A stretch of DNA of 64,000 nt, taken from the sequence record SRR31156797_636, one strand, 5' to 3'. The notes beneath the pieces are model-generated. The model did not search any database, was not told the origin of the DNA, and saw only the letters and a program-made list of their open reading frames with translations. Below are positions 1-64,000 of this stretch, in pieces. Every line of letters begins with the position of its first letter. Position 1 is the first letter of the stretch. Position numbers and translations under genes: made by a program.

Positions 1-360
1 ATGGACGAAGCAGAAAAAGCCTTTGAAATCGAAATCCGCATCGAAGATTTCATTGGCGTCGAGACCATCCAGGATCTTGCCGGCCGCATAGCGGAAATCA
101 AGGGTGTCGACATAAACGCTGAAATCGCGCCAGCGCCAACGAACGCGAACTACAACACTGTTCTTGAGCAGATGATTCAAATCATCATGGATTCCACAGG
201 CTATGAACGAGATGAAATCGAACCGGAGATGGACATTCGCCAGGATCTCAACATCCGGTCCAGTCGCTTGCCCATCATTATGGACGAAGCGGAAAAAATT
301 TTTAAAACCGAAATTCGCATCGAAGACTTCATCGGCGTCGAGACCATTCAGGATCTTGCC
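1..360 (+). repeat. Direct repeat encoding tandem ACP domains (copies at 1-81 and 280-360, offset 279 nt)
   Basis: atggacgaagcagaaaaagcc...gagaccatccaggatcttgcc recurs nearly identically from 280; the peptide MDEAEKxFxxEIRIEDFIGVETIQDLA occurs twice. Confidence 0.9.
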
Positions 361-2748
361 AACAAAATTGCAGAGCTTCAGGGGCGCTCCCCTGTCGCCG
401 CACGGTCAGTAGAAGACAGCAAGACCAAAACTCCTGTTGCTTCCACAGAAATACTAGATACCGTTCAGAACGAGTTACCCGTCTTGCGGTATGAATTCGC
501 CGAAACCGATGCCAACGCTCCTACAGGCACCCCGGCCTATGAGGTAGGCGGAGCCCCTGTCGTCATTGCAACCCTCGGTGGCTCCTACCGAATCGACGCA
601 GTTAAAAGTTGGGTCACAAAAACGGTTCAGGCTGATGTAGTCACCCTTGACCTGACCCGGAACACTAAGCTCGATGCTTTATCACAGTGCCAGGGGCTCA
701 TTCTACTCGTTGACGAAATAGAAGGCAGTGACAGCACACGCACCATACCAGCCCTGTTGCAGGTATTCCCCGCCATGAAAGACTTTGCCGGCAACAAAAC
801 GAAGAAATTTTGCATCACTATGGGCGAAGCCCTCAACGGAGCAACCCTGAGTGAAGTCGGCGAAGGCGTACTCGGCATCCTCATTGCCGCAGCCATGGAA
901 TACACCTCAACGGTCTTCCGCTATGCCGCTGTTTCGCAAGGGGTTGATATAAAGGATGTCCTTGATCGTTGCGTTTCCAGCGAAGAACGGACGGTCGAAC
1001 TCATTTTCAAGAATCGGGATATCATGACCCGAACGCCGCGCCCCGTTGCCTTCCGGACCGGCGAGTTGAAAACACAGCTCAAATCTGGCGATGTGATCGT
1101 CGTCACCGGCGGCGGCAAAGGCGTTACGGCAGCCGTGGCTGGAACTATGGCTGCCCTGGACGTGAAATTGGCATTGCTGGGTCGAAGCCCGGAAACTGCG
1201 CCAGACACAAAATCAACCCTCAACAGCATCAAGGGAATGGGATGTTCGGTGATGTACTGCTCCTGCGACGTCACAGACGCCCAAGCCGTTGGCAAGGCGA
1301 TCAAATCCGTCGCCAAGACATACGGTCGCGTGGACGCAGTCATACACGGAGCTGGACTCCTCAAAGACGGTTTCCTGCAACTCATGTCCATTGAAAACTT
1401 CGAACTTGTTCTCAAAGTCAAATTGCAGGGTCTCATGAATGTGGTCGAGGCCGCTTCCGGACATGGCCTTCGACTGGTATCCGCTTTTTCTTCCGTGGCG
1501 GCATGGCATGGCAATATCGGGCAATCGAACTATTGCGCAGGAAACAGGGCCATGGCGGCCTACCTGGAATCTCTTACAGATCGGGGCATTGCCGGAAAGA
1601 CCATCTGGCTGCCGCCTGTGGATGGTGTAGGTATGGCCAATGATCCAGAGGTGAAAAAACTTTTGGCCATGAAGAACATGGGGCAGGCGTATGTTCCCAT
1701 CGCCTCCCTGGCCAGACTCATCCGGCTTGAAATTGCTGACGGCCAGCCGGGATGGACCTTGCTTTCCCGCCCGGTCACCGCCCCCATTGGCGACAGATTC
1801 TTCCCCACCGGGCCCGAAAATGAACTTCTAGGCCGGGCCGTACACGGCCTGCCCATGATCGACGAAATCACGGAACTCAAGCTTGAGACACCCGAAATCA
1901 GCATAAAACGGTCTGTTTCCCACACCACAGACCCATGGCTACCTAACCACAAACCTTATCCAATACTGAAGTATCCGCTCTTCTCGGCAGTCATGGCCGT
2001 GGAAAGCTTGCTGGAAACAGCCAAGGCGCTCTACCCCGATTTCACACCGACCGGAGTAAAAGACGTCCATTTCCTGGACATGATCCCCTGTTCCGAAGAA
2101 GCAACCCGCGAACTGCGCGTAACTGCCAATGGGCGAGACACTTCAATTGGTGCCACACGTGTTGCCGCATCACTTTCCTGCCGTGACATGTCTCCCAAGG
2201 GACGCCAACTTGACCGGTGGAGCGACTGTTATACCGCTGAAATCATTATGGCAACCACCGCCGAACAAATGCTGACACCCCCGGTTTGGGACGGCGTTGA
2301 CTCCCTACCCCCCGTCACGCTTTCATCGTCCAAGATAGCTGACATCTATGCAAAGTACACGGCCCAGCTCGACCGGTATCAAGTGATCCAAAAAATCACC
2401 GGAGCGAATGAACGCGGTGCCACTGGCATTACCGTCTATGGCGATGAAAAAGATTTCACTTCCAAACGCGCTCCGTATCAATACTCGCCCTACCTGTTAG
2501 AGGCATTGATGCAACTGGCTCTATTCCAGCCTCTCGCGGCGGGCAGCGAGATAGCTCCGTTCCTGCCCGTAGGAATCGGTGAACTGCGCTTTGCCAGACG
2601 CTGCAATCCCGACGAGGCTGTAGCGCTCAAGGTCCGGTTGCGCGAAAACATCAAAGACGGCTCGGTTTGGGACGGCATGGCTTTGGACGAAAAAGGCAAT
2701 GTGCTCATGATAGTTGAAGGCTTGTCCATGAAGCGTATAACTAGCTAG
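1..2748 (+). CDS. Iterative type I PKS/FAS, PfaA/HglE-like, 5'-truncated (tandem ACP, KR, DH domains)
   Basis: Two ACP-like repeats (IIMDSTGYERDEIEPEMDIRQDLNIRSSR...VETIQDLA); KR motifs VTGGGKGVT, HGAGLLKDG, FSSVAAWHGNIGQSNYCAGN; DH-like DPWLPNH and LLEALMQ. The ORF begins mid-ACP at the window edge. Confidence 0.9.
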   Translation: MDEAEKAFEIEIRIEDFIGVETIQDLAGRIAEIKGVDINAEIAPAPTNANYNTVLEQMIQIIMDSTGYERDEIEPEMDIRQDLNIRSSRLPIIMDEAEKIFKTEIRIEDFIGVETIQDLANKIAELQGRSPVAARSVEDSKTKTPVASTEILDTVQNELPVLRYEFAETDANAPTGTPAYEVGGAPVVIATLGGSYRIDAVKSWVTKTVQADVVTLDLTRNTKLDALSQCQGLILLVDEIEGSDSTRTIPALLQVFPAMKDFAGNKTKKFCITMGEALNGATLSEVGEGVLGILIAAAMEYTSTVFRYAAVSQGVDIKDVLDRCVSSEERTVELIFKNRDIMTRTPRPVAFRTGELKTQLKSGDVIVVTGGGKGVTAAVAGTMAALDVKLALLGRSPETAPDTKSTLNSIKGMGCSVMYCSCDVTDAQAVGKAIKSVAKTYGRVDAVIHGAGLLKDGFLQLMSIENFELVLKVKLQGLMNVVEAASGHGLRLVSAFSSVAAWHGNIGQSNYCAGNRAMAAYLESLTDRGIAGKTIWLPPVDGVGMANDPEVKKLLAMKNMGQAYVPIASLARLIRLEIADGQPGWTLLSRPVTAPIGDRFFPTGPENELLGRAVHGLPMIDEITELKLETPEISIKRSVSHTTDPWLPNHKPYPILKYPLFSAVMAVESLLETAKALYPDFTPTGVKDVHFLDMIPCSEEATRELRVTANGRDTSIGATRVAASLSCRDMSPKGRQLDRWSDCYTAEIIMATTAEQMLTPPVWDGVDSLPPVTLSSSKIADIYAKYTAQLDRYQVIQKITGANERGATGITVYGDEKDFTSKRAPYQYSPYLLEALMQLALFQPLAAGSEIAPFLPVGIGELRFARRCNPDEAVALKVRLRENIKDGSVWDGMALDEKGNVLMIVEGLSMKRITS

Positions 2749-2759
2749 GCGTCATTTGC

Positions 2760-3350
2760 ATGATTCTCTTCTGCGATGGCATAGAAATCGCCGTTCGTCG
2801 AGCGCCTGTAGGAGATAACCGACGCACACTTGCTGAGATTACATGCACAGATCTGTCGTTTGACATGCATGAATTCTCTCTGGAAAAAGTGGGGTTGGGA
2901 GTTCCGAAACTCGTTGGGGAAAATCAGGCACCAGCCATATCGTTCACATCCTCCCGAGAAATCCGGTGGTGTGCCGTGGCGTGGTGCAAAGGGCTTGGTA
3001 TTGATGTCGCATGCCCGGAGGAATTCGAGCCACCATACCCTGTGTCACGTGTTTTCGATGCTGCTGAGATAAAACTCACTGAAGCCCATATTGATGATCA
3101 GTTGTCGCAACTGGCCCTACTGTGGAGTTTCAAGGAAGCGGCTGCCAAGGCCATGGGGACGGGTTTCAACGCTGTCGAACCCGGAGAGTTGACGGCAGCA
3201 GCTCTGCATGAGAAAGACGACAAGCTCAACGGAATCGTCACGACGCCCGGAGGAAAGCTCCCGGTTGTTGCGATCCGGGTGAGCGACTGCTGGCTAGCCA
3301 TTGCACGAAGACAAGTGAGTCGAGGATATACATGTCGAAATTTGAAATAA
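2760..3350 (+). CDS. 4'-phosphopantetheinyl transferase (ACPS/Sfp superfamily)
   Basis: Motifs LGIDVA and LWSFKEAAAKAMGTG; starts 11 nt after the PKS stop. Confidence 0.85.
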   Translation: MILFCDGIEIAVRRAPVGDNRRTLAEITCTDLSFDMHEFSLEKVGLGVPKLVGENQAPAISFTSSREIRWCAVAWCKGLGIDVACPEEFEPPYPVSRVFDAAEIKLTEAHIDDQLSQLALLWSFKEAAAKAMGTGFNAVEPGELTAAALHEKDDKLNGIVTTPGGKLPVVAIRVSDCWLAIARRQVSRGYTCRNLK

Positions 3351-5466: not shown

Positions 5467-7347
5467 TTACGCAACGTGCCCGTGCGCTTCCAGCCAGAGT
5501 TGCAGGACAAGGAAGGTCCACAATTCCTCGCGCCTGTCCACGACATTGTTCTTGTGCTCACCTATCAATGAAGCAATCGCCTCAGGACGGAACAGCCCCT
5601 GCCGTTTCAGGAAACCGGCATCCGCGAATCGCGCCAGTTGCGGTTTCAAACTACTGCCGAGCCAGCCGGCTACCGGCATGAGAAAGCCTCGCTTGTTCCG
5701 CTTTCGGATACTCGGAGGCATGAATCCGGCGAGAGCCTGTTTCATGAGGTGCTTCCGCTTCCCGCCGGGGATCTTGAAACGACCCGGCAGACTGAACACA
5801 TACTCCACCAGAGCCGTATCCAGAAACGGAGACCGGACCTCAAGCCCGTGCATCATAGAACAACGATCGACTTTCGTCAGAATGTAATCCAGCAGATATG
5901 TCTTGGCGTACTGGTTGAACACCGCGTCCAAAGGCGCACCGTCCTCGAATTCCTGCCAACTCTCGATCGGATGACCGAAAAGCAGTTCGGGCGAATCGCT
6001 CGGAGGTGAAGACCATAGCGTCTCCTGAGCTTCGGGGGAAAAGGCCATAAGCATGCGGGGAACCCTGTACGGCGCGGGAGCCTTGACCGCCTCGGCAAAC
6101 CGGCCCACGGCGTGGCCCGGACTGATGTAGTGGGAGGACACGGGCAGCATGCGGCGAAGCCCTTCAAGAACCATGCGCATGGGCATGCCGAGGGCGGCGC
6201 ATCGTTGCGCCCATATAAAGGCCGAAAAATGTTCGTACCCGCCGAACAGCTCGTCGGCCCCGTCGCCGGACAAGGCCACGGTGACATGCTGCTTGACGAA
6301 TCGGGAAAGGAAATAGGTCGGGATGATCGACGGATCGGCCAACGGTTCGTCAAACCTGCCGACAACTTCGCCCACCAGTTCCGCGCACATGGTGCCGGTG
6401 AGATTTTCATTGTAATGATCCGTCCCGGCGAATCGGGCGGCTTGAACCGCGTATTCCGACTCGTCGTACGCCTTTTCCTCGAATCCGATGGAAAAGGTTT
6501 TGACCTGAGAACTGCTGAGTCGGGACATGAGGCTGACGACGACCGTTGAGTCAAGACCGCCGCTGAGAAAGGCCCCAAGGGAAACATCGCTTATCAGGCG
6601 ACGCCCGACAGCGTCTTCGAGCAGACTCCTGATGTGCCCAGCCGCCTCGTCGCCCCCGACCGTACGGGTCGGATGCGGCAGCGACCAGTAACGGGAAACC
6701 GAGACTTCCCCATCCTTGAAGCGCAAACAATGCCCCGGCTGAAGTTTCCGCGCTTCCGTATAGATGGAACTCGGCGTCGGGACGTATTTGCAGGTCAGGA
6801 ACTGGGCCATGGCCTGCATGTCCAGATTGAACGATGTGTCAGGCACCGCAGTAAGGGATGAAAGTTCCGAAGCGAACGCGAACACCGAGTTCTGACAAGT
6901 GTAATAGAACGGCTTTTTGCCCATCCTGTCCCGCGCCGCAAACAGGGACTGCTCTTTGGTGTCCCATATGGCAAAGGCGAACATGCCCTCGAAATGCGAC
7001 AGGCACGCCTCGCCATACTCCATATAGGCCTGCAACAGAACTTCTGTATCAGACGTGGTACTGAAACTGTGGCCCTTGGCTTCCAAGGCGACTCGGACTT
7101 CCCGGAAATTGTATATTTCGCCGTTGAAAACGATGACGAACCGTCCGCAAGCACTCTTCATGGGCTGTCCGCCCGTACTGAGGTCTATGACTTCCAGGCG
7201 ACGGTGGGACAATGCGGCGGGTTGGCCGACCCAGACGCCGTCAGAATCCGGCCCGCGGTGCCGTACGCCATCGGCCATGCGTATGGCGCACTGCCGGAGA
7301 ACGTCCGACGTCAGCCGAGGGTGGACAACTCCGGCGATGCCGCACAT
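5467..7347 (-). CDS. asnB: AsnB-like glutamine-hydrolysing amidotransferase (probably glycan/glycolipid amidation)
   Basis: MCGIAG start, HRGPD, HRRLEVIDL, FNGEIYN, LSGGLDS, LSGDGADELFGGY, EVRSPFLD. Confidence 0.92.
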   Translation of the reverse strand: MCGIAGVVHPRLTSDVLRQCAIRMADGVRHRGPDSDGVWVGQPAALSHRRLEVIDLSTGGQPMKSACGRFVIVFNGEIYNFREVRVALEAKGHSFSTTSDTEVLLQAYMEYGEACLSHFEGMFAFAIWDTKEQSLFAARDRMGKKPFYYTCQNSVFAFASELSSLTAVPDTSFNLDMQAMAQFLTCKYVPTPSSIYTEARKLQPGHCLRFKDGEVSVSRYWSLPHPTRTVGGDEAAGHIRSLLEDAVGRRLISDVSLGAFLSGGLDSTVVVSLMSRLSSSQVKTFSIGFEEKAYDESEYAVQAARFAGTDHYNENLTGTMCAELVGEVVGRFDEPLADPSIIPTYFLSRFVKQHVTVALSGDGADELFGGYEHFSAFIWAQRCAALGMPMRMVLEGLRRMLPVSSHYISPGHAVGRFAEAVKAPAPYRVPRMLMAFSPEAQETLWSSPPSDSPELLFGHPIESWQEFEDGAPLDAVFNQYAKTYLLDYILTKVDRCSMMHGLEVRSPFLDTALVEYVFSLPGRFKIPGGKRKHLMKQALAGFMPPSIRKRNKRGFLMPVAGWLGSSLKPQLARFADAGFLKRQGLFRPEAIASLIGEHKNNVVDRREELWTFLVLQLWLEAHGHVA

Positions 7348-8573
7348 CAGCCAATCCCCCGCGCATGTGCTGAGAACAGTTCGATCAGGGTGGTACAGTT
7401 CTTCTCCTGATCAAACAGGTTCAAAACGTGATCCCTGCCATTGCTCGCAAATGCTTGAGCCTCTTCAGGGTTCCGGACCAGCCGGACAATGGCATCGGCC
7501 AGGACTTCGGGACGCCTTTGCGGAACAAGATACCCTGTCCTGTCGTTGATCACGACTTCGCTGATCCCGGCCACGTCCGTGGCAATGACAGGAAGACCGT
7601 GGGCATAGGCTTCCATGATGACATTGGGGATGCCGTCCCTGTCTCCATTGGTGTCCACCACGCTGGGCATAACCAACGCGTCACTGGCCAGCATGAGACA
7701 AGACAATGCATCGTGACTGAGGAATCCTTTGAAATCCACGGAGTTCGTCAGTTCGAGATTGGCGGCTTGCCGCATCAGCTTACCGCGCAACATGCCGTCA
7801 CCGGCAAATGTTAGAGAAAAATCGACACCCTGTTTTTTAAGCAGAGAACAGGCATCCAGCAGATTATCGAAACCCTTTGTCCTGACAAAACGTCCAGCGG
7901 CCAGAAGTTTGAGTTTTCCTCCATCCGACCAGTGCCGTTCCCCTTCAGGCCCCAATGAAAGCGCGTTATAGACCAGTATAATTTTGTCTTCATGGCCCTT
8001 GGCGAATGATTGCAGATACGGGACATTGGCTCCATGATTGACCCGAACGAAGGAGGCGTCCCCGATCTTGTCACTCAATGAGCCTTCAGGCGGGTAGATG
8101 TCTCCAGCCCGTCCGGCAAAGGAAAAAGGGATACCTGAAAGCTTCGAAGCGACCCATGCGGCCGTGGCCGGTCCTCCGGCCCAGGGGGCATGGATATGCT
8201 GAATCCCCTCTTCCTGAAAACGCCTAGCCAGATGCAGGCCGCAACAAAAAGCCCAGAGGTTCTCGCCCAGTCCCTCCAAGGAACGCCATTTGTTAAATGG
8301 CCCTGCCTTGAGCATTGAAAACGTCTGAGTAAAATCAAACGCAAGGCGCTTAAACAATGCGCCAAGCAGCATCAGCGTCTTGATGGAACCCAGATGCTCG
8401 GATGGAGTAAACTCCTGCATTTCAGCTGAAAAATTCTTGGTCAGACCAGCATACAGGGTGAACACTTTGATAGGCAATCCCATATCACGCATCTTTTTGA
8501 CTTCGCGAAAAATGAAGGTTTCAGACGGCTTTGGAAACCATAGCGAAATATATGCGGTACGAGGGAAATTCAT
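7347..8573 (-). CDS. Glycosyltransferase family 4 (WcaL-like)
   Basis: SETFIFRE, HIHAPW, GRFVRTKG, DRDGIPNVIMEAYAHGLPVIATDVAGISE. Confidence 0.9.
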   Translation of the reverse strand: MNFPRTAYISLWFPKPSETFIFREVKKMRDMGLPIKVFTLYAGLTKNFSAEMQEFTPSEHLGSIKTLMLLGALFKRLAFDFTQTFSMLKAGPFNKWRSLEGLGENLWAFCCGLHLARRFQEEGIQHIHAPWAGGPATAAWVASKLSGIPFSFAGRAGDIYPPEGSLSDKIGDASFVRVNHGANVPYLQSFAKGHEDKIILVYNALSLGPEGERHWSDGGKLKLLAAGRFVRTKGFDNLLDACSLLKKQGVDFSLTFAGDGMLRGKLMRQAANLELTNSVDFKGFLSHDALSCLMLASDALVMPSVVDTNGDRDGIPNVIMEAYAHGLPVIATDVAGISEVVINDRTGYLVPQRRPEVLADAIVRLVRNPEEAQAFASNGRDHVLNLFDQEKNCTTLIELFSAHARGIG

Positions 8574-11281: not shown

Positions 11282-11310
11282 GGCTTCAAGACATGTCACC
11301 CGAATACGGG

Positions 11311-11908: not shown

Positions 11909-11938
11909 GTCTGCTCCCACTGTCTCTGTTTCGTTGTG

Positions 11939-14294: not shown

Positions 14295-14296
14295 CG

Positions 14297-16832: not shown

Positions 16833-16945
16833 CAAAAAAACGATATAATTGCCAAAAAAAATCTTTAAAATTTGGCATCAATACAATATCTCAATAGCCG
16901 CAACTACCTCAACTGCTTCCAAGAAAAACATAAGGATAATTAGTC

Positions 16946-18094: not shown

Positions 18095-18111
18095 AGTCCA
18101 GCAAAACCCGC

Positions 18112-48271: not shown

Positions 48272-48278
48272 GGACAAA

Positions 48279-49397: not shown

Positions 49398-49437
49398 GGT
49401 ACTTCTATTGTAAAGATTAACCGTTGGAGGACAGCGG

Positions 49438-50562: not shown

Positions 50563-50674
50563 CGTTTTCAGCTTTTTTGAAAATATTAAAATTATACTGT
50601 TTATACAATTTTTATGTATGGTGCATATTGAATTTATACTGACAAACACTCCCCCCAAAACCAAGTAGAGAGTT

Positions 50675-51721: not shown

Positions 51722-51723
51722 GA

Positions 51724-52752: not shown

Positions 52753-53010
52753 GACTCTGAGCAAGAAGCGGAGATCTGGAATGTCACTGTCCAAACAGAA
52801 AGAGGTTCCTTTTCACACTTACCTACGAGCGAGCATCTCTCCTCTTTCAACAGGAGAAGCTTTCCGTCCGGCCCGTTGCATGCTATAAGGCCCTAAGCTA
52901 ATTTACTGAAACAATTTGAAGCGGAAACAAACGAGGCAACCTTATTGCCCTCATACGCCCCGGGCTGCCAAGTGGCATCGCCTGCGGGACATTGGAAATT
53001 GCGAAGAAGG

Positions 53011-54426: not shown

Positions 54427-54464
54427 CAACCGCACTGACTAAGTACCCAGCTGCAATTTAGATA

Positions 54465-55646
54465 ATGAACCTGAAGTCCGTCCTAAACACTTTTCTCGTC
54501 AGCTTTGTCTGCTTTCAGAGCGTATTCCTGACGCCATACGTCATCATTGTCTCCACTGACAGAAGCAATCTCTTCACGCCGATTCTGGCGGGGACAGCGC
54601 TTGTCATTATCGCTTTCACTCAAGGACGACGAACCGTCTTCGCCAAATGGGACGTCCTGCTATGGTTGGCCCTCGGAGCAACCATGGCTTACGGGGTCAC
54701 CCTGACAACCGATGTGCCATCGTCAGCCTATCGCGCATTCTCCCTCTATATTCCGGCCTTAAGCGGATACTGGGTTGGACGTCTGCTGTCCTATGATCAG
54801 TATTGGAAAAAGATGGCGCCATATATAATGAGCGGTCTCTTCTTCCTCATGTCATCCATTCAAATCATAAACGGGGTTGGTGCTCCCATACTACAACTGC
54901 ATCACCATGCGCTGTCCAACCTTCTGCTTCTTTTGGCAGTCGGGCCAGCCACTTTCCTCATGCGTGGCCCCCTCTACATCAAGGCAGCGTGTGCCACGAT
55001 TTTAAGCATGGGCTATTTCGCATGTTACATCGTCGGTTCACGCTTCACGGTCGTTTTGCCGATACTGCTGCTGCCTCTCATGTCAATCCTTAAACTGCTA
55101 CGATTCAAATGGCTCCTTATTGCCGGAATCCCCTTTCTCGCAGCAGCGTGCATCTTCTTCATTCAAAAGCCTGAAAAAATACTCAAAATTCATGATTACG
55201 AATCTGTTTTCTACAGGGTCGAAGGTCTTCCAGCCGCGATCCACCTCATCAAGAAACACCCTTTTTTCGGCATTGGACTTCGCACCGAACGCGAACCGTA
55301 TCTTGAAGACTATAAAATGACTTTCGACATGACAAGCCGCGAACGATTCATGCTGGTCGTTCGAAAGAACGTGACGCAGGACAACATGCTAATGACGCTG
55401 CTTGTGGGCCTTGGGATCATACCCACACTCTTGTATCTCGGTTTGATCTGGGCCTATCTCAAACGTCTCATCAAGGCCATCAAAACACAACGCGACGGGC
55501 CGCTCAACTCCATAGCGCTTGCTTTTGCCTTATGTGCCAGCGTACTTCATTTCAGTGTTCAGGACGGACTTCTTTATCCGCAGGTCAGTTGGCTCTTCCA
55601 TCTGCTCATAGGCATGATCCCGAGCAAGGACAGCTCAGCTACATAA
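54465..55646 (+). CDS. O-antigen ligase / Wzy family membrane protein
   Basis: About 10 TM; GSR, YRVE, HPFFGIG, DNMLM..L...G. Confidence 0.75.
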   Translation: MNLKSVLNTFLVSFVCFQSVFLTPYVIIVSTDRSNLFTPILAGTALVIIAFTQGRRTVFAKWDVLLWLALGATMAYGVTLTTDVPSSAYRAFSLYIPALSGYWVGRLLSYDQYWKKMAPYIMSGLFFLMSSIQIINGVGAPILQLHHHALSNLLLLLAVGPATFLMRGPLYIKAACATILSMGYFACYIVGSRFTVVLPILLLPLMSILKLLRFKWLLIAGIPFLAAACIFFIQKPEKILKIHDYESVFYRVEGLPAAIHLIKKHPFFGIGLRTEREPYLEDYKMTFDMTSRERFMLVVRKNVTQDNMLMTLLVGLGIIPTLLYLGLIWAYLKRLIKAIKTQRDGPLNSIALAFALCASVLHFSVQDGLLYPQVSWLFHLLIGMIPSKDSSAT

Positions 55647-56709
55647 GGTCAGTGACGATATCGCACAGTTGGTCGGCTGCCTTGTTCCAATCAAATAATT
55701 CAGCCTGCTTGTACCCTTCTACCCTCATCAGCTCCTGGCCTTCCCCATCCTCGACAAAGTCCAGAATCGTTGCGGCGATATCATCGACGCTGTAAGGATC
55801 GAAGTATCGTGCAGCTCTGCCGCAAACTTCGGGCAAAGACGTGGTATTTGCCGCCAGAACAGGACAGCCGCACGCCATTGCCTCTGCAGCAGGCAGACCG
55901 AAGCCCTCATACAATGAAGGCATAATCAGTGCATTGGCCTTGGCAACGATCTTTATGAGTGACTCTTGTTCCAGTTCGCCCACCAATTCAACTTGGTCAC
56001 CCCTAGTCAGTTCATCCAAATCATGAAAACCGGAGATAAACCCGTCGTACCGCCCCACAAGCACAAGCTTGTGAGGAACCTGTCTGCTTACTAGTTGGAA
56101 TGCATCCACAAGCCTCTTCAAATTTTTATGCGGCTTAATATTTCCCACATACACGAAATACGGCTCCTGCTGCACGATTGGGGTATGCAGACGTTTCCAG
56201 ACATTGTCCACTCCATTCCAAACGACTTTCACCGCCTGAGATGCGTATCCCAACTTCGAGACCAGCTCGCTCTTGGTGAACTCCGAAACGGTAATAATCT
56301 TTTCTGATCGCAATCTCACCGCCCTGAACATCAGGGTCGCATACAGACGAACTAACGGATTCGTGTGAATATCCCTCAAGGAAAGATGGCAAATGTCATG
56401 GACGGTGGTCAGGATTTTACCCGGATACAGTGCCGGGATATTGTAATGAGGAGCCCAGAAAAGGTCTGATGTGCGAGGGATGGCAAAGGGGAGGGTCACT
56501 TGCTCACTGATGGAATAGATGGGGGCGTCAAACCGAAGGAATGTCACATTGGTCACTCCGGATTCGACCATGAGCCGACATAAAGAGTCCGGGGCTCCCA
56601 AAAGAGTTATGGGCAGCGTATGGAGACGCTTGGCCATCCTTGGGATCAGATTCCTAATGTAGACACCGATTCCGGAATGATCAGCCATACGACAATCTAT
56701 GGTCAGCAT
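55639..56709 (-). CDS. Glycosyltransferase family 4 (MtfB-like)
   Basis: IDCR, SGIGVY, PHYNIP, TVHD, VGNIKPHKN, PSLYEGFGLPAAEAMACG; AAGGAGG RBS. Confidence 0.93.
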   Translation of the reverse strand: MLTIDCRMADHSGIGVYIRNLIPRMAKRLHTLPITLLGAPDSLCRLMVESGVTNVTFLRFDAPIYSISEQVTLPFAIPRTSDLFWAPHYNIPALYPGKILTTVHDICHLSLRDIHTNPLVRLYATLMFRAVRLRSEKIITVSEFTKSELVSKLGYASQAVKVVWNGVDNVWKRLHTPIVQQEPYFVYVGNIKPHKNLKRLVDAFQLVSRQVPHKLVLVGRYDGFISGFHDLDELTRGDQVELVGELEQESLIKIVAKANALIMPSLYEGFGLPAAEAMACGCPVLAANTTSLPEVCGRAARYFDPYSVDDIAATILDFVEDGEGQELMRVEGYKQAELFDWNKAADQLCDIVTDLM

Positions 56710-56781: not shown

Positions 56782-58488
56782 TTATTCCGGACTTCCTGAA
56801 ATATTTGCGGCCATCTTTTTGACGTCAAGGACTTTGACTCCCGGACCGATAATTACTCCCGGCAAATCCGCATCCAGCACCGCGAAACCATCTCCATGAG
56901 CTGCCAGCGCCCGAATCTCATCGTCGAAAGGTGCAAAGAATGCACCTCCGGCAATAAACTCATCCTCGAAAAACTGTTCATCGACAACAAAATAATCAAC
57001 GCTGTTTCTTTGACAAAAACTCACAATTTCAAGCAAATCTGAAGAGTAATAGGCTTTAAATAGATCTTCCAGTCGGGGCTGAATGACTTTCCAGTAACCG
57101 ACGCACCAAGGATGCGCCAATTCATAAGAAACAAAAACATTCCGCTGTCCGAACATGAGCAAATTGTCCATCTGGTAGGGGTGTCCGGCAACAAGAACAT
57201 CCTTGTCAGTGGTAGAGCGAACAAACTCGCAAACCGGACGATCATGGGTATAATCATACAGTGCGACCCCTTGGAGGCGCACACATCCGATGACGAATCC
57301 CGTGACAAGAACGCAAACCATAAACGTCTCACGCTTCAGGCGGAAATATCGGCATACCCCGACGAGTGCGCACCCCAGAAGACAACAATATAAAATATTC
57401 ATCGTGTATTCCAGATAACGGGACGGGATGAACAGCTGCAACAAAATCAATCTGGCCAAGATGTAAAGAGCAAAGGAAGCACTACCGATACTCAGCCACA
57501 CCACTACGCTGGATTTGACACTCTTCCACTGAAAACCCCGAATACCAAAAAAGAGAAGACCAACGCACACCGCCACTCCAATTCCACCCACAACAGGCCC
57601 CCCGTCACGGAATGGAGCAATGTACTCAAAAGGCCGGACAAATAATTCCCAAAAGAGTGAAGGCACCGGCAAAATTCCAAAACGACCAGCTTCATAGAAT
57701 TCAGGCCTGCCAGTCATGTCAGCCATACTTGCCATAGGGCCAAAACCCGCCAGATGCATTTGAAAACGCCAAGCCAGAAGCCCGCAACAGGCAAGGGCTG
57801 AGATAACGTAATCCGACCATTTGACGAGGAATGGCGGCGGCGATGTCAACTCGAAACGCCAAGCAATCATGGCTAGACCGATGCTGCCACCACACAGAAT
57901 AAAAATATATGGGATAAAAAAGGCCTGAAGCAATAGAGCCCCGGCCATCAGCCAACGCACACGGCGGACCCAGGCCAAAATGAACAGGAGCATTAGTGGC
58001 CCCGCGAATGCCCTGGACAATCCCCCGGATATGGAATGCAAAAATATGGGCATCGCCCAGTACACGGCCACCATGGACAAGCCTAAAGCCTCATCGGCCA
58101 TGGACTTGCCGACCCAATAGGCAAACATCGCCATCAGAACGAACAGAACCCCTGTCAGCAACTTGGAGAACAACAAGGGAGACACGACCATGGCAGCTAC
58201 AAAGTACAGCGACTGCACCCCCCAGGGAACATAGCGCATGGCATATTCATTCAAAATGCTCTCTGGATACAGGGCCGGATCAAGCCACCGTTGCATCCAG
58301 TAAAGCTGCTGGCGCGTATCATCATTGATGATATATGAATTCAGGAATCCGGTATGATGTGATATGAGAAAAAGAAGAGTCGAAAAAATTAAAACAAAAA
58401 AGGGTGCATATCTGCACACTGCCCCCCAAAGGGTAGCGGTGAATTGGCCTGTCCCAGACACAACACCCGTTCCTCTATGGAGCGTCAT
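56782..58488 (-). CDS. Polytopic membrane protein, putative GT-C-like transferase
   Basis: First-loop DD motif (INDDTRQQLYWMQ), about 11 TM, PSRY, C-terminal soluble domain (VDYFVVD). Confidence 0.6.
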   Translation of the reverse strand: MTLHRGTGVVSGTGQFTATLWGAVCRYAPFFVLIFSTLLFLISHHTGFLNSYIINDDTRQQLYWMQRWLDPALYPESILNEYAMRYVPWGVQSLYFVAAMVVSPLLFSKLLTGVLFVLMAMFAYWVGKSMADEALGLSMVAVYWAMPIFLHSISGGLSRAFAGPLMLLFILAWVRRVRWLMAGALLLQAFFIPYIFILCGGSIGLAMIAWRFELTSPPPFLVKWSDYVISALACCGLLAWRFQMHLAGFGPMASMADMTGRPEFYEAGRFGILPVPSLFWELFVRPFEYIAPFRDGGPVVGGIGVAVCVGLLFFGIRGFQWKSVKSSVVVWLSIGSASFALYILARLILLQLFIPSRYLEYTMNILYCCLLGCALVGVCRYFRLKRETFMVCVLVTGFVIGCVRLQGVALYDYTHDRPVCEFVRSTTDKDVLVAGHPYQMDNLLMFGQRNVFVSYELAHPWCVGYWKVIQPRLEDLFKAYYSSDLLEIVSFCQRNSVDYFVVDEQFFEDEFIAGGAFFAPFDDEIRALAAHGDGFAVLDADLPGVIIGPGVKVLDVKKMAANISGSPE

Positions 58489-58489: not shown

Positions 58490-59437
58490 CTATTTTACAT
58501 CAGCCTTTTCATTTTCCGTAAACATGATCCGGACCTTATAGCCTTCCTTCAGGAAATTGTCAGGATTGTCGATTTCCAATTCAGCAGCATAATATGACGG
58601 CGCATCGATATTGGTGTCAACCGGCAACCACGACATAGACACCAGCTTGGCCTTCATGACCTTGTCAGGATTGAATTCCACTATGACCTCAGCTGTATCA
58701 CCCGGCTTCAAACGATACATGTCAGCTTCATATACCTGAGTCCGAATGATCATCGGGTCCATAACACCGATAGCAAAAACGGATTCATCAACGATTGCTC
58801 CCAACTCCACATTGGTGTTTTCCCATATAATATAGCCCTCGATGGGAGAACGAACATACATCTGGGACGTATCCAACCTACGGTCACCTTTTTGCCCAAG
58901 CATTTCAGCAATCAACAACCTATCATCAGCAGCCCGTTTTTGATCTTGAGTCAACTCTTTCTTTGCCTGCTCGACCTGAAACGAGATGAGGGATATCTGA
59001 TCCCTCAAGGAAGCAACACCCTTATCCGTCGCCAGTCCCTGCTGACTCAGAGTCTTGTTTGACTCAAGCTGTTTATTGAGAGTCTTGAGTCTAGCTTTCC
59101 ACTTCTTGATCTCCAGCTCTTGGCGAGTAAATTCAAGCTTCTTGTCAACCCTGGCTTCAAGGCCGAGAGCGTCCTTGCGCTTGAGACGTACTTTCATCAG
59201 CACGTCGTCCTTTTTCACCAATTGGCCAACGCTCACCTTCTTCTCAATCACCTCGCCGGAATAGGGCAGCTTTACGGGATGTGTCATCGAGCAATAGACC
59301 TTCCCCTGAAAAATCGTCTCAACCGCATTCGCAGCAGAACTAATACCATGCTTCTGCTGACCATACGCAAACGAGCAGGCCAGCAGCAGAGTGGTCATTA
59401 AAACTATCGCAGCAAGTCTAATTTTCCAGGTCATCAT
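58490..59437 (-). CDS. Periplasmic adaptor / membrane fusion protein (HlyD/MacA/DevB-like)
   Basis: Signal peptide, PYSGEV...VSVGQLVKKDDVL, coiled coil, VRSPIEG, VYEAD..LKPG, IDNPD..LKEG. Start placed at MMTWK. Confidence 0.88.
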   Translation of the reverse strand: MMTWKIRLAAIVLMTTLLLACSFAYGQQKHGISSAANAVETIFQGKVYCSMTHPVKLPYSGEVIEKKVSVGQLVKKDDVLMKVRLKRKDALGLEARVDKKLEFTRQELEIKKWKARLKTLNKQLESNKTLSQQGLATDKGVASLRDQISLISFQVEQAKKELTQDQKRAADDRLLIAEMLGQKGDRRLDTSQMYVRSPIEGYIIWENTNVELGAIVDESVFAIGVMDPMIIRTQVYEADMYRLKPGDTAEVIVEFNPDKVMKAKLVSMSWLPVDTNIDAPSYYAAELEIDNPDNFLKEGYKVRIMFTENEKADVK

Positions 59438-60872
59438 CTTTAATCTCAATGTACTGTTCCAACAACCTACCCGTCAGGGCATAAGTCTCCAATTTACGTA
59501 CTATATAACTTTGTTGTTTGGACAACAAAGTTATTTCCTTGAGTACAACGGCAACTTTTGCCGACACGAAATCCCTGAATGTCGCTTCTCCAGCGTCAAA
59601 CAAAATCTCCTTCTTTCTCAGCATCATCTCCTGCAACTCCAGATCGACCTTAGCAAGTTCAAGCTCGCGTTGCATGCTGCGCAATTCCGTCAACCCTTTG
59701 TACCAGTTATCTTCTTTGGTCAAGTTTGAGAGCTGACGCCTAAATCCTTCATTCTTTTTGACAAGTTCGGCCCTATCGGTATTTCGGCCAAGTTCGCCCC
59801 AATGCAAAACCGGAACTGTAATGCCAAGGGTCAAATAAAAATCTTCCTTGCCGTCTGTCGATGAGCTGATCGGATCAGGAGTTCTTACGGAAACGGAAAA
59901 CTTAGGCACATAATTAGCCCAAGCTGCATAAACACCATAATTCGATAATTCTTTACGGATGACGTTCATTTTCGAAAAAAGTGCGCTGCTCTTCATCTCC
60001 TGATAAGTAATCTTGTGTGGAGCATACACCGCATCAACCACGCTGGCAAAGTCGCTTTTTTTCAGAACTATTTTTTGTTCGACCGGAATACCGATCATCC
60101 GCTTGACCCGCATCTCCATATCGGAACGCTGCTCAATGAAAGTCCGCCTGTTGCAGGCAACTTTTTGCAGTTCCTGTTCAGCCAAACGGACTTCGAGTGG
60201 CACCACTGGAGCGTTGGGGTACATTTTCTGGATATATGAGAGAGTTTCATTTCCGAATGCCTCAAGTTTCCGCTGCTCATCCATTATTTTATCAAAAAAC
60301 TCAGCATGAATATAAACCTTGATGACATTGGCAATTAGCTCGTTGGCAGCCTGAAGTTTTTGATATTTTGCAAGCTTGGTCACGAGCAAACTGGCATCAT
60401 GACTCAAATAAGACCCAATGGGGTCCCATGTGCCACTACTAAAGCTCACCGACAACTTGTTACGCGACTTGTCGTCCTTCGTTGTCAGATTCACGTTGTT
60501 GCTGACGTAAAGATTCAGCTTGGGAAACATCCTCCACCACTTATTTTCTTCATCAATCTTCTTGATGTCGATTTCGACCTCGGCCATCTTCATGTACGGA
60601 GATTTTTCCAGAGTCAGCTGGATGCATTCTTCAAGAGTCAGGGGATCTGTCACAAAAGATTCGGTCGAAGTAGGAGTAGCACCATTCCCGGTAGAAAGTG
60701 TCGCACTAGCGGTTTCCCAATCCACAGGGGACGGAGTTTCACTCGTGGCCCCACAGCCAAAAGCAACGAGCATCATAAGCAGCATGCACCCCAAAGTCAG
60801 CTTGCAGCCGACCAAGGACGCGAAACGCTTTTTTTTGATATTATATTTTTCTACCCTGCTTTTCATAAGCAT
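59418..60872 (-). CDS. TolC-family outer membrane efflux protein, probable lipoprotein
   Basis: Lipobox-like LVAFGC, LTLEECIQLTLEKSP, two helical repeats with PKL/PKF, FDAGEATFRD; between ABC ATPase and adaptor. Confidence 0.82.
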   Translation of the reverse strand: MLMKSRVEKYNIKKKRFASLVGCKLTLGCMLLMMLVAFGCGATSETPSPVDWETASATLSTGNGATPTSTESFVTDPLTLEECIQLTLEKSPYMKMAEVEIDIKKIDEENKWWRMFPKLNLYVSNNVNLTTKDDKSRNKLSVSFSSGTWDPIGSYLSHDASLLVTKLAKYQKLQAANELIANVIKVYIHAEFFDKIMDEQRKLEAFGNETLSYIQKMYPNAPVVPLEVRLAEQELQKVACNRRTFIEQRSDMEMRVKRMIGIPVEQKIVLKKSDFASVVDAVYAPHKITYQEMKSSALFSKMNVIRKELSNYGVYAAWANYVPKFSVSVRTPDPISSSTDGKEDFYLTLGITVPVLHWGELGRNTDRAELVKKNEGFRRQLSNLTKEDNWYKGLTELRSMQRELELAKVDLELQEMMLRKKEILFDAGEATFRDFVSAKVAVVLKEITLLSKQQSYIVRKLETYALTGRLLEQYIEIKDDDLEN

Positions 60873-61081: not shown

Positions 61082-61765
61082 TTACTGTTCCTTCAGTATT
61101 CCATCTTCAAGGAGAAATCTTCGGGTACAACGCTTGGCAACTTCCGTATCATGAGTAACCAAAACCATGGCCTTCCCTTTGATAGAAACAATTTTCTCAA
61201 AATATTTCATTATCTTCTCACCCGTCTTCCGATCAAGCTGTCCTGTAGGCTCGTCCCCCAACAAAACTTGAGGACGATTCACTAGGGCACGGGCAATGGC
61301 GACACGCTGCTGTTCACCGCCGGACAGGCGGTTCGTAGCGTGATGAATCCTGTGAGACAGATTTACCTCCTTCAGTGATTCTTCAATGATTCCAGCACGT
61401 TTAGCTCTCGATATCTTTCCGTAAATAAGCGGATACTCGAGATTTTCATAGACCGTAGAATTTTCAAACAGGTTGCACGACTGAAGCACAAAACCAAGAT
61501 TATCCCGTCTGAATCCGGCCCTCTCCTTAACATTCAGACCGAGCACATCACGACCAAGTATCTTGTAGCTGCCAGAGGTAGCTGGCTGCAACATCCCCAT
61601 AATATACAACAAGGTGGATTTTCCACAACCTGAAGGCCCCATGATGGAAACCATCTCGCCAGGATAAATATTGACATCCACACCGGTCAACACAGGCACC
61701 TTGCCCGCCGGAGTGACGTACTCCTTCCGAAGATTCTTAACTGAAATGATAGGATCAGGTTTCAT
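61082..61765 (-). CDS. ABC transporter ATP-binding protein (MacB/LolD/DevA-like)
   Basis: GPSGCGKSTLL, LSGGEQQRVAIARAL, LLGDEPTG.LD, VTHD. Confidence 0.96.
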   Translation of the reverse strand: MKPDPIISVKNLRKEYVTPAGKVPVLTGVDVNIYPGEMVSIMGPSGCGKSTLLYIMGMLQPATSGSYKILGRDVLGLNVKERAGFRRDNLGFVLQSCNLFENSTVYENLEYPLIYGKISRAKRAGIIEESLKEVNLSHRIHHATNRLSGGEQQRVAIARALVNRPQVLLGDEPTGQLDRKTGEKIMKYFEKIVSIKGKAMVLVTHDTEVAKRCTRRFLLEDGILKEQ

Positions 61766-61769: not shown

Positions 61770-62960
61770 CTACTCGAACCGTATTGCGGTCACGGCATCC
61801 AATCTCGATGCCCTCAATGCCGGATAATATCCTGTAACAAGTCCAAGCATTCCGGAAAAGACAATACTCATACCGGCATAGGTAATGAACACATCTCGCG
61901 ACGGGCTGCTCCCGAGGAAATGACTGGCGAACTCAACAACCACATATCCCAATAGCACCCCGAATATGGCAGCACTTATACTCAGACAAAAAGCCTCACA
62001 AAGAAACTGACTCTTGATGTCCCGCCCCTCGGCTCCCATCGCTTTTTTCAGTCCGATCTCACGAGTCCTGGCAATGACGGAACTCATCATACCATTCCAG
62101 ATACCAAAACCGCCAAGCGTCAGAGTTGCGCCGATAGACAAAAAAATGAACAGCTCCACCCACCACACGATGAGCACCAACCGATGCAACTGCTCCCAAG
62201 AGACATGACTGACCAGATAATCTGCGGACTGGTGAGCCTTGACCGTGGCCACCAACGCGTCGGCCACAGGTTTAACATCGTCCCATGTCTTGCAACGCAG
62301 GTATATCCTGTCCGAACGGTATTCCTTGCCGCTCCGGTCAATGGCCGCCGTCAACGGAACAAAGGCATAGGAATTGCGCTGTCCGATCTGAAGCCCCCCG
62401 ACAACGCCAAGAACCTTATAAAGGTCCTTACCGATACGGATGTAGTTGCCCAAGGCGCTTTCTTGACCAAACAACGACTCTGCGAGCTCTTCACCAATCA
62501 CGCAAACCAGTGACCGTTCATCGACAAAGGATTTGCCAAACAGGAATCCGGCAACCGGCTCCAGGCTGTTGGCGGACCAGTAATCGGCATCAACTCCCTG
62601 GACCGGAACGATATTTTTTTCCCCGTTAACAAGCATCGGAACCCAGTTGATGGTCTCGGTTGCGGCGCTAACAACATCAACGCCCGGCAATGCCCGCAAG
62701 GCATCCTGAGTTTCGTCGGTAAAGAATTTGTCCCTGGCTCCGGGGTGCTTTTCCTCTTCAAATCCCAACTTGATAAGGGTCGCACCTCCAAGAAGATCAA
62801 GGTCATGGTTGAGCTTCTTCTTGACCTCATCACCCATGGCCATCACTGCAAGCAAACTCGCCGTCCCCAAGGCAATAGCCAACATCACGCCGAAACTGCG
62901 GCGGCGCTGTCGGAACACCTGACGAACGCTGATGTGTATTAGATCTCGTGCTGTGATCAT
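61770..62960 (-). CDS. ABC transporter permease (MacB/FtsX family)
   Basis: RRSFGVMLAIALG, large periplasmic domain, RTREIGLKKAMGA, QFLCEA, YYPALRASRLD..AIRFE. Start placed at MITARD. Confidence 0.92.
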   Translation of the reverse strand: MITARDLIHISVRQVFRQRRRSFGVMLAIALGTASLLAVMAMGDEVKKKLNHDLDLLGGATLIKLGFEEEKHPGARDKFFTDETQDALRALPGVDVVSAATETINWVPMLVNGEKNIVPVQGVDADYWSANSLEPVAGFLFGKSFVDERSLVCVIGEELAESLFGQESALGNYIRIGKDLYKVLGVVGGLQIGQRNSYAFVPLTAAIDRSGKEYRSDRIYLRCKTWDDVKPVADALVATVKAHQSADYLVSHVSWEQLHRLVLIVWWVELFIFLSIGATLTLGGFGIWNGMMSSVIARTREIGLKKAMGAEGRDIKSQFLCEAFCLSISAAIFGVLLGYVVVEFASHFLGSSPSRDVFITYAGMSIVFSGMLGLVTGYYPALRASRLDAVTAIRFE

Positions 62961-63022
62961 ATTCTGAAGACATCCCCGTTCAAGGGGATCTAAAGGCATC
63001 CTTGAGGTATGCCATCACCATT

Positions 63023-64000
63023 CTAATTGACGATGCCAACGCCAAGAGCGGAAGCAACTTTTTTAAAGCAATTCAAAACCTGTTCAATATGCTTGTCTTC
63101 GTGCGTACTCATGAACGCCACCCGAATGATGGCCTCTCCCTTCGGAACCGCAGGGTAGACCGCAGGCAGAGCAAAAACGCCTACATTCAACAATTCCAAA
63201 GAAAACTTGAAGGCTTTGACTTCGTCTCCGATCAAAACGCCGATGACAGGGCTGGCTCCTTCAACCATCTCTAGCCCAATGTCCTTGAATCCCTGACGGG
63301 CTTTTCTGGTGTTCTCCCACAACTTCTGAACCAGCTCAGGCTCTTCCCGAATGATCTTGCAGGATTCAAGCGCGGCTGCAGCGCTGGCCGCTGGCAATGC
63401 TGCGGAAAAAATCAAAGTCCGACTTTTATGCTTCACATAGTCCAGAAAATCGAGATCATCCGTCACGATGAACCCCCCGATGGAAGCAAGGGCTTTACTG
63501 AAAGTCCCCATGATGACATCGACATCCTTTGTGACACCGAAATGGTGGGCAGTTCCCCTGCCACCTCCCATCACGCCTAAGCCATGAGCGTCATCAAGGT
63601 AGACGACCAGATTCGGGTCCTCCTCCTTGAGGGAGATCAAGCCGGGCAAGTCCGCAACGGAACCGGACATGCTAAACACGCCTTCCGAAACAGCAACCCG
63701 CTGTGCTTCAGGATGTCTGTCCATGGATTTTTTCAGAATCTTGCGTGCATCATCCATGTTGTTATGGGCAAAGCTACGCATCTTGGCTCTGGAGTTAAGA
63801 CCACCCTCAAGAATACTCGCATGACTGTCGCGGTCGCACAGCAAGAGATCACCAGGGTCGACAAGGCAGGTGAATATTCCAGCATTCGCCAAAAAACCCG
63901 TAGTATGAACGACAGCCCCTTTCTTCCCAAGCAGATCGGCCACGGCCTCTTCAAGTTCGGTAATCACGGATATGTTCCCACACAGGAACCGGGAGCCGCC
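63023..64000 (-). CDS. spt: PLP-dependent alpha-oxoamine synthase, serine palmitoyltransferase-like (5'-truncated)
   Basis: Frame open to the window edge: GGSRFLCGN, TTGFLAN, DRDSHASI, FAHN, EGVFSM, DDAHGLG, GTFSKALASIGG, IFSAALP, PAVP, IRV. AOS family is clear; SPT specificity is inferred from GTFSK and the context. Confidence 0.75.
   Translation of the reverse strand, partial: GGSRFLCGNISVITELEEAVADLLGKKGAVVHTTGFLANAGIFTCLVDPGDLLLCDRDSHASILEGGLNSRAKMRSFAHNNMDDARKILKKSMDRHPEAQRVAVSEGVFSMSGSVADLPGLISLKEEDPNLVVYLDDAHGLGVMGGGRGTAHHFGVTKDVDVIMGTFSKALASIGGFIVTDDLDFLDYVKHKSRTLIFSAALPAASAAAALESCKIIREEPELVQKLWENTRKARQGFKDIGLEMVEGASPVIGVLIGDEVKAFKFSLELLNVGVFALPAVYPAVPKGEAIIRVAFMSTHEDKHIEQVLNCFKKVASALGVGIVN

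Follow-up and report, generated by a model that had tools for sequence, protein, structure and literature searches.

The present analysis describes a candidate lipid gene system in a stretch of 64,000 nucleotides (nt) of sequence record SRR31156797_636, referred to here as the window, which belongs to a Pseudodesulfovibrio-like sulfate-reducer genome. Conserved lipid genes lie at both ends of the window. It is probable, at roughly 60%, that the left and right blocks are the halves of one system that makes, glycosylates and exports a ceramide-type (sphingolipid-like) lipid, judging from homology and gene order. The left block carries a polyketide synthase (PKS), a phosphopantetheinyl transferase (PPTase), the GNAT-like protein P0001 and the short-chain dehydrogenase/reductase (SDR) P0003, and the right block carries the alpha-oxoamine synthase (AOS) P0002 and an export pump. 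Genes were called from an open reading frame listing of the window together with Pfam and NCBIfam scans. Genome G001 (3.70 Mb, single contig), which is collinear with the window and 99% identical to it at both ends, was used for the flanks. A sequence-only reading of the window had proposed a PKS-fed glycosphingolipid system around a glycan cluster. Every gene it named was found as an open frame at its assigned position with the expected family signal; the core of the proposal was borne out and its edges were overstated.

Arrangement and linkage of the two blocks

The left end of the window is a tight plus-strand operon, which consists of the last third of the PKS (1..2748), the PPTase (2760..3350), P0001 (3332..4453, 373 aa) and P0003 (4463..5452). 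The PPTase begins 11 nt past the PKS and overlaps the start of the GNAT gene by 19 nt, and 9 nt separate P0001 from P0003. At the right end, seven consecutive minus-strand genes begin with P0002 (63023..64000) and continue with a MacB-type permease (61770..62999), an ABC ATPase (61082..61765), a TolC-like channel (59418..60872), a HlyD-type adaptor (58490..59449), a 568-aa membrane protein (56782..58488) and a family 4 glycosyltransferase (GT4; 55639..56709), with gaps of 23, 4, 209, -32, 1 and 72 nt. The N-terminal 76 residues of P0002 lie beyond the window, and the full protein in G001 has 401 aa. In the G001 flank the conserved lipid system reaches about 14 kb past the left end of the window. 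The left block thus starts some 14 kb ahead of the window and ends at 11299, and the right block spans 56782 to the AOS gene.

That the two ends belong together, as the sequence-only reading had claimed, is supported by genome G036, in which they are contiguous. The order there is PKS, PPTase, GNAT, SDR, GT2, radical SAM, AOS, MacB, ABC, TolC, HlyD and a protein of GT-C fold. Identities to the window are 47% and 37% for the PKS, which has 2431 aa in G036, 45.5% for the GNAT, 44% for the SDR, 40% for the GT2, 59% for the AOS, 55% for MacB, 56-58% for ABC and 43% for the GT-C-fold protein. The GT-C-fold gene is followed by a glycosyltransferase (MJ1255), a radical SAM/SPASM gene (60%), unk309, two GT4 genes and Wzx, all within about 35 kb, and homologues of these trailing genes are found in G001 ahead of the PKS or in the window to the immediate right of the SDR. 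About 18 genes form one unit in G036, which in G001 is split into the left and the right block. G001 and G036 each have a single GNAT-family match, and in both the window and G036 the HlyD gene abuts the GT-C-fold gene at the spot that holds a GNAT in other genomes. In addition, two metagenome loci, L170 and L186, have PKS and GNAT abutting MacB and ABC, and the AOS is present in L170 as well.

A search of 121 genomes of the same family, in which P0002-like AOS were set by row classification, found such an AOS (51-59% identical) in 26 genomes, two of these being fragments. A P0001-family GNAT was present in 24 of the 26, and the two genes lay within about 6 kb of each other in 17 of the 24. 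All eight loci examined had the order AOS-MacB-ABC-TolC-HlyD-GNAT-GT-C, with GT-C homologues of 34-42% identity, and none of the eight contained the PKS. Within the genus itself the GNAT was found in just 2 of 42 genomes.

For metagenomes, a profile of 31 sequences yielded 572 relatives of the GNAT, from which the best 80 loci were kept. A PKS homologue accompanied the GNAT in 41 of these best 80 loci, and PPTase homologues were present in 14. Twenty loci had flanks of at least 5 kb on both sides; 16 of them contained the PKS, 11 the SDR, nine the PPTase, nine the AOS (all together with the PKS) and two MacB, while PKS, SDR and AOS occurred together in six. The common order was SDR-AOS-GNAT(-GNAT)-PKS-PPTase. 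Loci L112 and L113 have the order of the window, PKS-PPTase-GNAT-SDR-GT4-GT4-GT2-Wzx. The SDR was paired with the GNAT in five of five pair loci and adjoins it in four Pirellulaceae loci, and an AOS stands directly upstream of the GNAT in the Bacteroidota metagenome-assembled genome L017. Linkage of the GNAT with both Spt-like and CerR-like genes is thus seen in G036 and in the metagenome orders SDR-AOS-GNAT-PKS. Two adjacent GNAT genes were observed in loci L114, L146, L147 and L162.

The core enzymes, the PKS and the pump

The roles of Spt, bCerS and CerR in bacterial ceramide synthesis are given in the accessible parts of PMC11087976 and PMC11324152, and the Caulobacter gene set listed in the latter is also that of the E. 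coli and Roseomonas clusters. In E. coli strain 120899, yghO adjoins lptF/G paralogues, an spt gene so named by PGAP, an acyl carrier protein (ACP) gene, an epimerase-family SDR and an acyl-AMP ligase. A plasmid search identified pRo-1 of Roseomonas gilardii, which carries an acyl-AMP ligase, an SDR, glycosyltransferases, a flippase, an ACP and an AOS across the record start, and further two LptF/G paralogues, a desaturase, a homologue of P0001, a diacylglycerol-kinase-like gene and a CDP-alcohol transferase. P0001, P0002 and P0003 are each the top match in the window to their E. coli and Roseomonas counterparts.

P0002 appears to be an Spt-like AOS. It matches PF00155 with 158.5 bits over residues 45-385, and its translation contains the strings SHAS, DDAH and TFSK, which we take to be AOS motifs (pyridoxal-phosphate-binding lysine, His/Asp). 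It is 35% identical to E. coli Spt over the full length, and AOS identities across the E. coli and Roseomonas clusters are 35-37%. Among the curated models of AOS subfamilies it scored highest on an Spt model, with the cut-off not reached. In a sequence search of the PDB the top solved relative was the serine palmitoyltransferase (SPT) of Sphingobacterium (3a2b/8guh, 316.7 bits), followed by Thermus BioF/KBL (257), Kbl (229), cysteate-C-fatty acyltransferase (205.5), ALAS (185.8) and E. coli BioF (163). The pump-cassette AOS of G116 is likewise nearer to SPT (326 vs 236 bits), and the ranking is reversed for the BioA-adjacent AOS of the congener G121 (BioF/KBL 271, SPT 215). In a 48-row AOS tree, in which the Spt references were defined by gene context rather than by assay, P0002 and the cassette AOS formed a clade of 27 rows with support 100/100. 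This clade joined E. coli Spt, Roseomonas Spt, a Bacteroidota AOS and PKS-linked metagenome AOS with an SH-aLRT value of 96 under a mixture model, and with only 84/82 in a careful LG+G4 run. As an Spt, P0002 would condense serine with a long-chain acyl thioester.

P0001 is a YghO-family GNAT-like N-acyltransferase and a candidate of the bCerS type, and P0003 is an extended SDR (Epimerase PF01370, 105.1 bits) and a candidate CerR-type reductase of 3-oxo lipids. These assignments had been made by the sequence-only reading and hold in so far as both proteins match those that occupy the places of bCerS and CerR in spt clusters of proteobacteria, at 33-34% and 26-27% identity, respectively. P0001 is 33% identical to E. 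coli YghO over 371 aa (E 8e-65) and 34% identical to the Roseomonas protein that occupies the CerS position beside the LptF/G paralogues (E 9e-63). Its nearest named homologue, at 91%, is from Pseudodesulfovibrio methanolicus, and PF00583 is carried by 39-84% of the members in the Atlas clusters nearest to that homologue. One search found 2445 relatives of P0001 at E<=1e-5, and an exhaustive search found 1138 clusters of 50% identity at E<=1e-30. In a GNAT tree of 89 rows, for which metagenome contigs long enough to show context were used, P0001, the G036 protein and the PKS-linked GNATs formed a clade of 60 rows with support of 100 and 99 in two runs. This clade includes 11 family genomes that have the GNAT and SDR pair only, and the pump-cassette GNATs form a separate clade of 17 rows. 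Tandem fusions also exist in the GNAT family, for example the 784-aa protein P0244 with two matched stretches. P0003 is 27% identical to the E. coli cluster SDR over 315 aa (E 1e-30) and 26% identical to the Roseomonas cluster SDR over the full length (E 2e-25), and its best match to a solved SDR reached just 65 bits. P0003 begins straight at the nucleotide-binding glycine motif and no signal peptide was seen in it by eye; the CerR of Caulobacter is reported to be periplasmic in the accessible text of PMC11087976.

The full PKS, which starts 5.1 kb upstream of the window in G001, has 2616 aa and is an iterative type I PKS of fatty-acid-synthase-like kind. Its domain order is a weak NMO-like N-terminus, an enoylreductase (ER, FabK/NMO-like), a ketosynthase (KS), an acyltransferase (AT), three ACP, a ketoreductase (KR) and a dehydratase (DH), of which the third ACP (PP-binding), the KR (116.7 bits) and the DH (PS-DH) lie in the window. 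The KS-AT-ACPn-KR-DH architecture of the PfaA/HglE type is therefore present, with an N-terminal ER and three ACP repeats added to it; the score against the PfaA model TIGR02813 (356.4) is below the cut-off of 1010.1. Domain scans of all 2616 aa found no thioesterase or reductase release domain. The PPTase (ACPS, 36.5 bits) is the presumed activator of the carrier domains. These domains form three near-identical repeats of 94 aa (residues ~1565-1828), which read NIRSS where the usual DSL serine motif is expected, and the repeat is also seen in the DNA at window positions 1-104 and 280-383.

The right block encodes a pump of MacB-type tripartite make-up. The permease (MacB_PCD plus FtsX) has cassette homologues of 42-55% identity and the ABC ATPase (ABC_tran), of the MacB/LolD/DevA type, has cassette homologues of 54-60%, while the HlyD adaptor and the TolC-like outer-membrane channel (OEP) are identified by Pfam and by cassette synteny. 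A tripartite ABC-adaptor-TolC exporter, as the sequence-only reading had proposed, is thus present, and the likening to DevBCA failed at the family cut-offs (DevA TIGR02982, 172.7 vs 295.8; DevB TIGR02971, 30 vs 129). The GT-C-fold protein encoded behind the pump in the eight cassettes and in G036 corresponds to the 568-aa polytopic membrane protein of the window. It has about eight predicted helices, and N55-D56-D57 after the first helix is invariant in seven sequences. Its AlphaFold2 model (pLDDT 81, pTM 0.83) was compared with known structures by Foldseek, and the best 27 matches were all GT-C enzymes (23 at E<=0.001; TM 0.41-0.54), namely DPY19, STT3, PglB, AglB, ArnT, AftD, ALG12 and AftA. 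At the sequence level no Pfam, NCBIfam or PDB match was found for this protein, a PDB profile search gave a chance match only, and hhalign against the PMT_2 protein of the window gave a probability of 1.4%. Its homologues are all named "hypothetical." The Atlas features of a 48% homologue, taken as a lead only, point to RgtA-D-like, PMT_2 and STT3 clusters. The protein is presumed to work on the periplasmic side with polyprenyl-phosphate sugars.

Proposed pathway, alternatives and related systems

All steps of the proposed pathway are drawn from homology and gene order. The PPTase would prime the three carrier domains of the PKS, which would build a long reduced acyl chain and, for want of a release domain, keep it on its ACP. 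In this role the PKS would replace two components of the clusters in Caulobacter and E. coli, the acyl-AMP ligase and the free ACP, homologues of which were not found in the window or its flanks. A 3-oxo long-chain base would arise from an acyl thioester and serine (or a different small amino acid), joined by the Spt-like AOS. The GNAT would then N-acylate this base, most likely with the PKS-borne chain as acyl donor because no other gene is linked as tightly to the PKS as this GNAT clade, and either the AOS or the GNAT could release the chain from the PKS. The 3-oxo group would be reduced by the SDR, sugars would be added on the cytoplasmic side by the GT2 (GT21-like) and GT4 enzymes, and the head group may be modified by an AsnB-type enzyme. 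The lipid could be moved outward by a Wzx-type flippase or by the pump; on the periplasmic side the GT-C-fold protein would attach a sugar, and the MacB-HlyD-TolC pump would take the lipid to the outer membrane. The placement of the PKS chain in the lipid and serine as the amino acid are both presumed. A more specific version holds that the PfaA-like megasynthase hands an unusually long ACP-bound chain directly to the Spt- and bCerS-like enzymes, that a new GT-C family finishes the (glyco)ceramide and that the MacB-HlyD-TolC pump is dedicated to its export. This version is tentative, and we would sooner expect some part of it to fail than the whole of it to hold.

Several observations weigh against one system with a ceramide-type product. 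P0002 is below every curated NCBIfam Spt cut-off (NF047600, 401.8 vs 640; NF047599, 317.5 vs 500; NF047603, 246.3 vs 670), and in pairwise comparison with E. coli Spt the pump-cassette AOS (189-226 bits) overlap with BioF-like AOS (184-206 bits). P0001 has no Pfam match even at E<=1 and no NCBIfam match, a PDB sequence search with it gave nothing at E<=10, and its link to Caulobacter bCerS appears to run through proteins recognised by their position in gene clusters. The AOS accompanied the GNAT in only nine of the 20 long-flank metagenome loci, and GNAT and SDR pairs occur in genomes without a P0002-like AOS. In both of the two such genomes examined, a more distant AOS lies elsewhere with an AT-ACP gene and accessory genes. 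Also, four of five pump-cassette genomes searched lack a P0003-like SDR at E<=1e-15 and the fifth has just 63-64-bit matches. The scores of P0002 and the missing reductases would also fit one system with another product, in which the AOS takes a different amino acid, for instance alanine or glycine to form 1-deoxy bases or cysteate to form a sulfonolipid-type base, or the GNAT acylates a different amine, so that the product is a PKS-derived aminolipid. The match of P0002 to the solved cysteate-C-fatty acyltransferase favours this reading, as does the accessible text of Ding et al., which ties the Desulfobacterota to 1-deoxy- and sulfono-1-deoxyceramides (PMC11334938). However, SPT is the best solved relative of P0002, 60 bits above the next and 111 above the cysteate enzyme, and the AOS, GNAT and SDR all match proteins of the E. 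coli and Roseomonas spt clusters. Such a product is unlikely on balance, though it deserves to be kept in view.

It is improbable that the two ends are unrelated neighbours, with P0002 as BioF or a housekeeping enzyme beside a general MacB efflux pump and the PKS operon making a separate lipid. In the window, 58 kb separate the AOS from the GNAT and SDR genes; G001 encodes no AOS other than P0002 and has a BioD-BioA fusion (669 bits, L024:8798-10870) and BioB (L025:7095-8177), for which reason P0002 may still have a BioF role, sole or additional. P0002 scores 337.6 bits against the bioF model, under the cut-off of 426.45, as it is also under that of the Kbl model (327.1 vs 460). These facts are countered by the contiguity of both ends in G036, by the gap of only 23 nt between the AOS and the permease and by the constant order in all eight cassettes. 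Moreover, a second, BioF-like AOS is present in 13 of the 26 genomes that have a P0002-like one, and nine of these 13 have it within 4 kb of BioA. The congeners G121 and G076, unlike G001, retain a BioF-like AOS beside BioA. That a sole AOS must be BioF is a weak argument, since BioA exceeds its cut-off in 66 genomes and 21 of these have no AOS match at E<=1e-40. The sequence-only reading had named a grouping of P0002 with BioF/Kbl as fatal to its proposal; P0002 does not group with the BioA-adjacent, BioF-like AOS, and a constraint placing P0002 and the BioA-adjacent AOS in one clade was rejected by the approximately unbiased (AU) test (74 log-likelihood units worse, p-AU 3e-08). BioF as the main role of P0002 was rejected on the PDB scores, the genomes with both AOS, the cassette order, the trees and the AU test. 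An even more remote explanation is a system like that of heterocyst glycolipids, in which the PKS makes a long-chain polyol or fatty alcohol that is glycosylated and exported by a DevBCA/TolC-like pump, with AOS and GNAT outside the lipid core. The PfaA/HglE-like domains of the PKS, the GT2 and tripartite pump at hand and a weak NAD_binding_4 match in the SDR (45 bits) would suit it, but the Dev cut-offs are missed, the GNAT is the most constant neighbour of the PKS, and the pump travels with AOS and GNAT but without the PKS in eight of eight loci.

On the preferred reading, a ceramide-type lipid made by one system, the locus appears to be a variant of the known bacterial ceramide pathway. It shares all three enzyme types with the Spt/bCerS/CerR plus AcpR/AasR pathway, which is present in Caulobacter crescentus and, beside yghO, in many E. 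coli. The differences are that a 2616-aa PKS with three ACP and its own PPTase stands in place of the acyl-AMP ligase and free ACP, that a MacB-TolC pump is present instead of LptF2/G2 paralogues, that the genes lie in two blocks and that no curated Spt cut-off is reached. The closest precedent for the PKS is SgaABC of Pseudomonas fluorescens MYb115, in which the iterative type I PKS SgaA, the SPT-type AOS SgaB and an SDR give sphinganines (PMC12134224). In its accessible text this system likewise has a PKS that feeds an SPT-type AOS, followed by a 3-oxo reductase, and its stated components are PKS, AOS and SDR, an N-acyltransferase, pump or glycosyltransferase not being mentioned. There the SDR is called a homologue of eukaryotic KDSR, not a CerR-like protein. 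Compared by description with SgaA and SgaB, the PKS of the window is of PfaA/HglE-like type, with an ER at its N-terminus and ACPs in tandem. The same text covers the fungal clusters for sphinganine analogues, such as fumonisin with the PKS Fum1, the AOS Fum8 and the reductase Fum13. These are alike in that an AOS releases the PKS chain and 3-oxo reduction follows; they differ in being eukaryotic, in making toxins rather than membrane lipids and in having no GNAT N-acylation step or envelope pump. The heterocyst glycolipid system combines an HglE-type PKS with DevBCA-HgdD. Its likeness to the window lies in a PfaA-like KS-AT-ACPn-KR PKS, a dedicated PPTase, a glycosyltransferase and a tripartite ABC-adaptor-TolC exporter. 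The product here would instead be amide-linked through AOS and GNAT and not a fatty polyol glycoside, and the host here is a sulfate reducer in which the Dev cut-offs are missed.

The sequence-only reading had stated that no characterised system has this combination of genes. PKS-derived sphingolipids as such were already published (SgaAB, in the accessible text of PMC12134224), and the statement has to be narrowed accordingly. SgaABC was the sole bacterial PKS-sphingolipid system found in our literature search. Within the openly accessible main texts searched, neither a PfaA-like PKS joined to bCerS- or CerR-like genes nor a MacB pump within a ceramide cluster was found, and no ceramide-related title was found among the titles on yghO examined. 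Ding et al. 2024 report Spt-like proteins with bCerS and CerR in 38 phyla, as far as the accessible portion shows, and the word "polyketide" appears nowhere in that paper (PMC11334938). The locus is therefore an extension rather than a new principle, because its enzyme chemistry is known in kind.

The system would be of interest for several reasons. According to the accessible part of PMC11087976, no flippase or lipid transporter had been identified for bacterial sphingolipids. The pump, kept between two core enzymes in eight of eight loci, is a concrete candidate for transport of sphingolipids to the outer membrane and, if this is true, would be the first dedicated sphingolipid exporter. Secondly, the PKS link would be a route to chains outside the usual fatty-acid pool, and it is common in environmental DNA. 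The gene set as such is also widespread. Lastly, the system could be a genetic source for the structurally unusual ceramides of anoxic waters, of which sulfate reducers are suspected producers. Related species in culture should be amenable to genetics and lipidomics because the closest named homologue of the GNAT is from Pseudodesulfovibrio methanolicus.

Accessory genes and the central glycan region

Four genes to the right of P0003, all on the minus strand, recur with the lipid genes. The membrane GT2 at 8570..9787 is HpnI-like/GT21-like and a candidate for transfer of the first sugar. It had been called ceramide-glucosyltransferase-like by the sequence-only reading; the GT2 type holds (27.8 bits vs a cut-off of 27), while its own score against Pfam GT21 (PF13506) is below the gathering threshold (17.3 vs 21.7). 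The orthologues beside the SDR in G036 (40%) and beside the AOS in G116 (33%) do pass GT21, with 38.5 and 41.6 bits, and further homologues are found in the metagenome loci L112, L113 and L128. The AsnB-type glutamine amidotransferase at 5467..7347 scores 529.9 against a cut-off of 816.9 on the XrtA/PEP-CTERM amidotransferase model; its homologues (38-41%) lie beside four of the eight pump cassettes, and a 50% homologue lies beside the AOS of G042. The GT4 at 7347..8573, identified by Pfam, has homologues in G036 (44%), L128 (44%), G069 (49%) and G042 (37%). The Wzx/MOP-type flippase at 9863..11299, also identified by Pfam, has homologues of 48-52% in L112, L113, L128 and G036. The minus-strand GT4 at 55639..56709 stands at the inner edge of the right block, 72 nt past the end of the GT-C gene. 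No homologue of it was found among the related loci compared, and its membership in the system is uncertain. A radical SAM/SPASM gene of the left flank (G001 L005:8652-9866) also accompanies the lipid genes elsewhere, with identities of 60-66% in G036, G116 and L128. An apparent third variant was observed in G069 and G042 (L194, L195), where an AOS 32-33% identical to P0002 lies beside an AT-ACP didomain gene and homologues of unk309 and of the GT4 at 7347-8573; the G042 locus additionally has an AsnB homologue. In both genomes the GNAT and SDR pair is located elsewhere.

The central region (11381..55646) holds 35 genes and is a variable polysaccharide region. It contains three further Wzx-type flippases, which brings the total between the ends to four, two Wzy_C proteins, two polyprenyl-phosphate sugar transferases of the initiating kind, many glycosyltransferases and sugar-nucleotide enzymes. 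Homologues of these genes were counted at >=30% identity, >=60% coverage and E<=1e-15, and each of the 35 had 0-1 homologues in the 80 metagenome loci and 0-3 in 18 Desulfovibrionaceae loci. The glycan cluster is thus bracketed by the lipid genes, as had been proposed, and the central region of about 44 kb is not their conserved partner. For this reason decoration of the lipid with a long O-antigen-like glycan, which had also been suggested, is without support, and we regard the 44 kb of polysaccharide genes as separate variable cargo outside the conserved lipid system. The GC content (left block 0.547, centre 0.501, right block 0.488) is not decisive for mobile-element borders of the central region. 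A search for such borders found no tRNA genes, and the ACP repeat was the only direct repeat of at least 40 nt.

The sister species G129 is collinear with the window and lacks 30304-45373. This 15-kb indel contains two polyprenyl-phosphate sugar GT2 genes, a PMT_2 GT-C gene, an LPG_synthase_TM flippase-like gene, a Wzx gene, methyltransferases and a WbuX-type amidotransferase. The central region also encodes a UDP-sulfoquinovose synthase-like protein (16946-18094), which scores 453 bits against a cut-off of 575 and is 95.5% identical in G129. Outside the window, about 8 kb beyond the AOS gene, G001 encodes a giant protein (>3718 aa; L006:8746-19899) in which cadherin-like, Big_9, VWA and NIDO domains occur.

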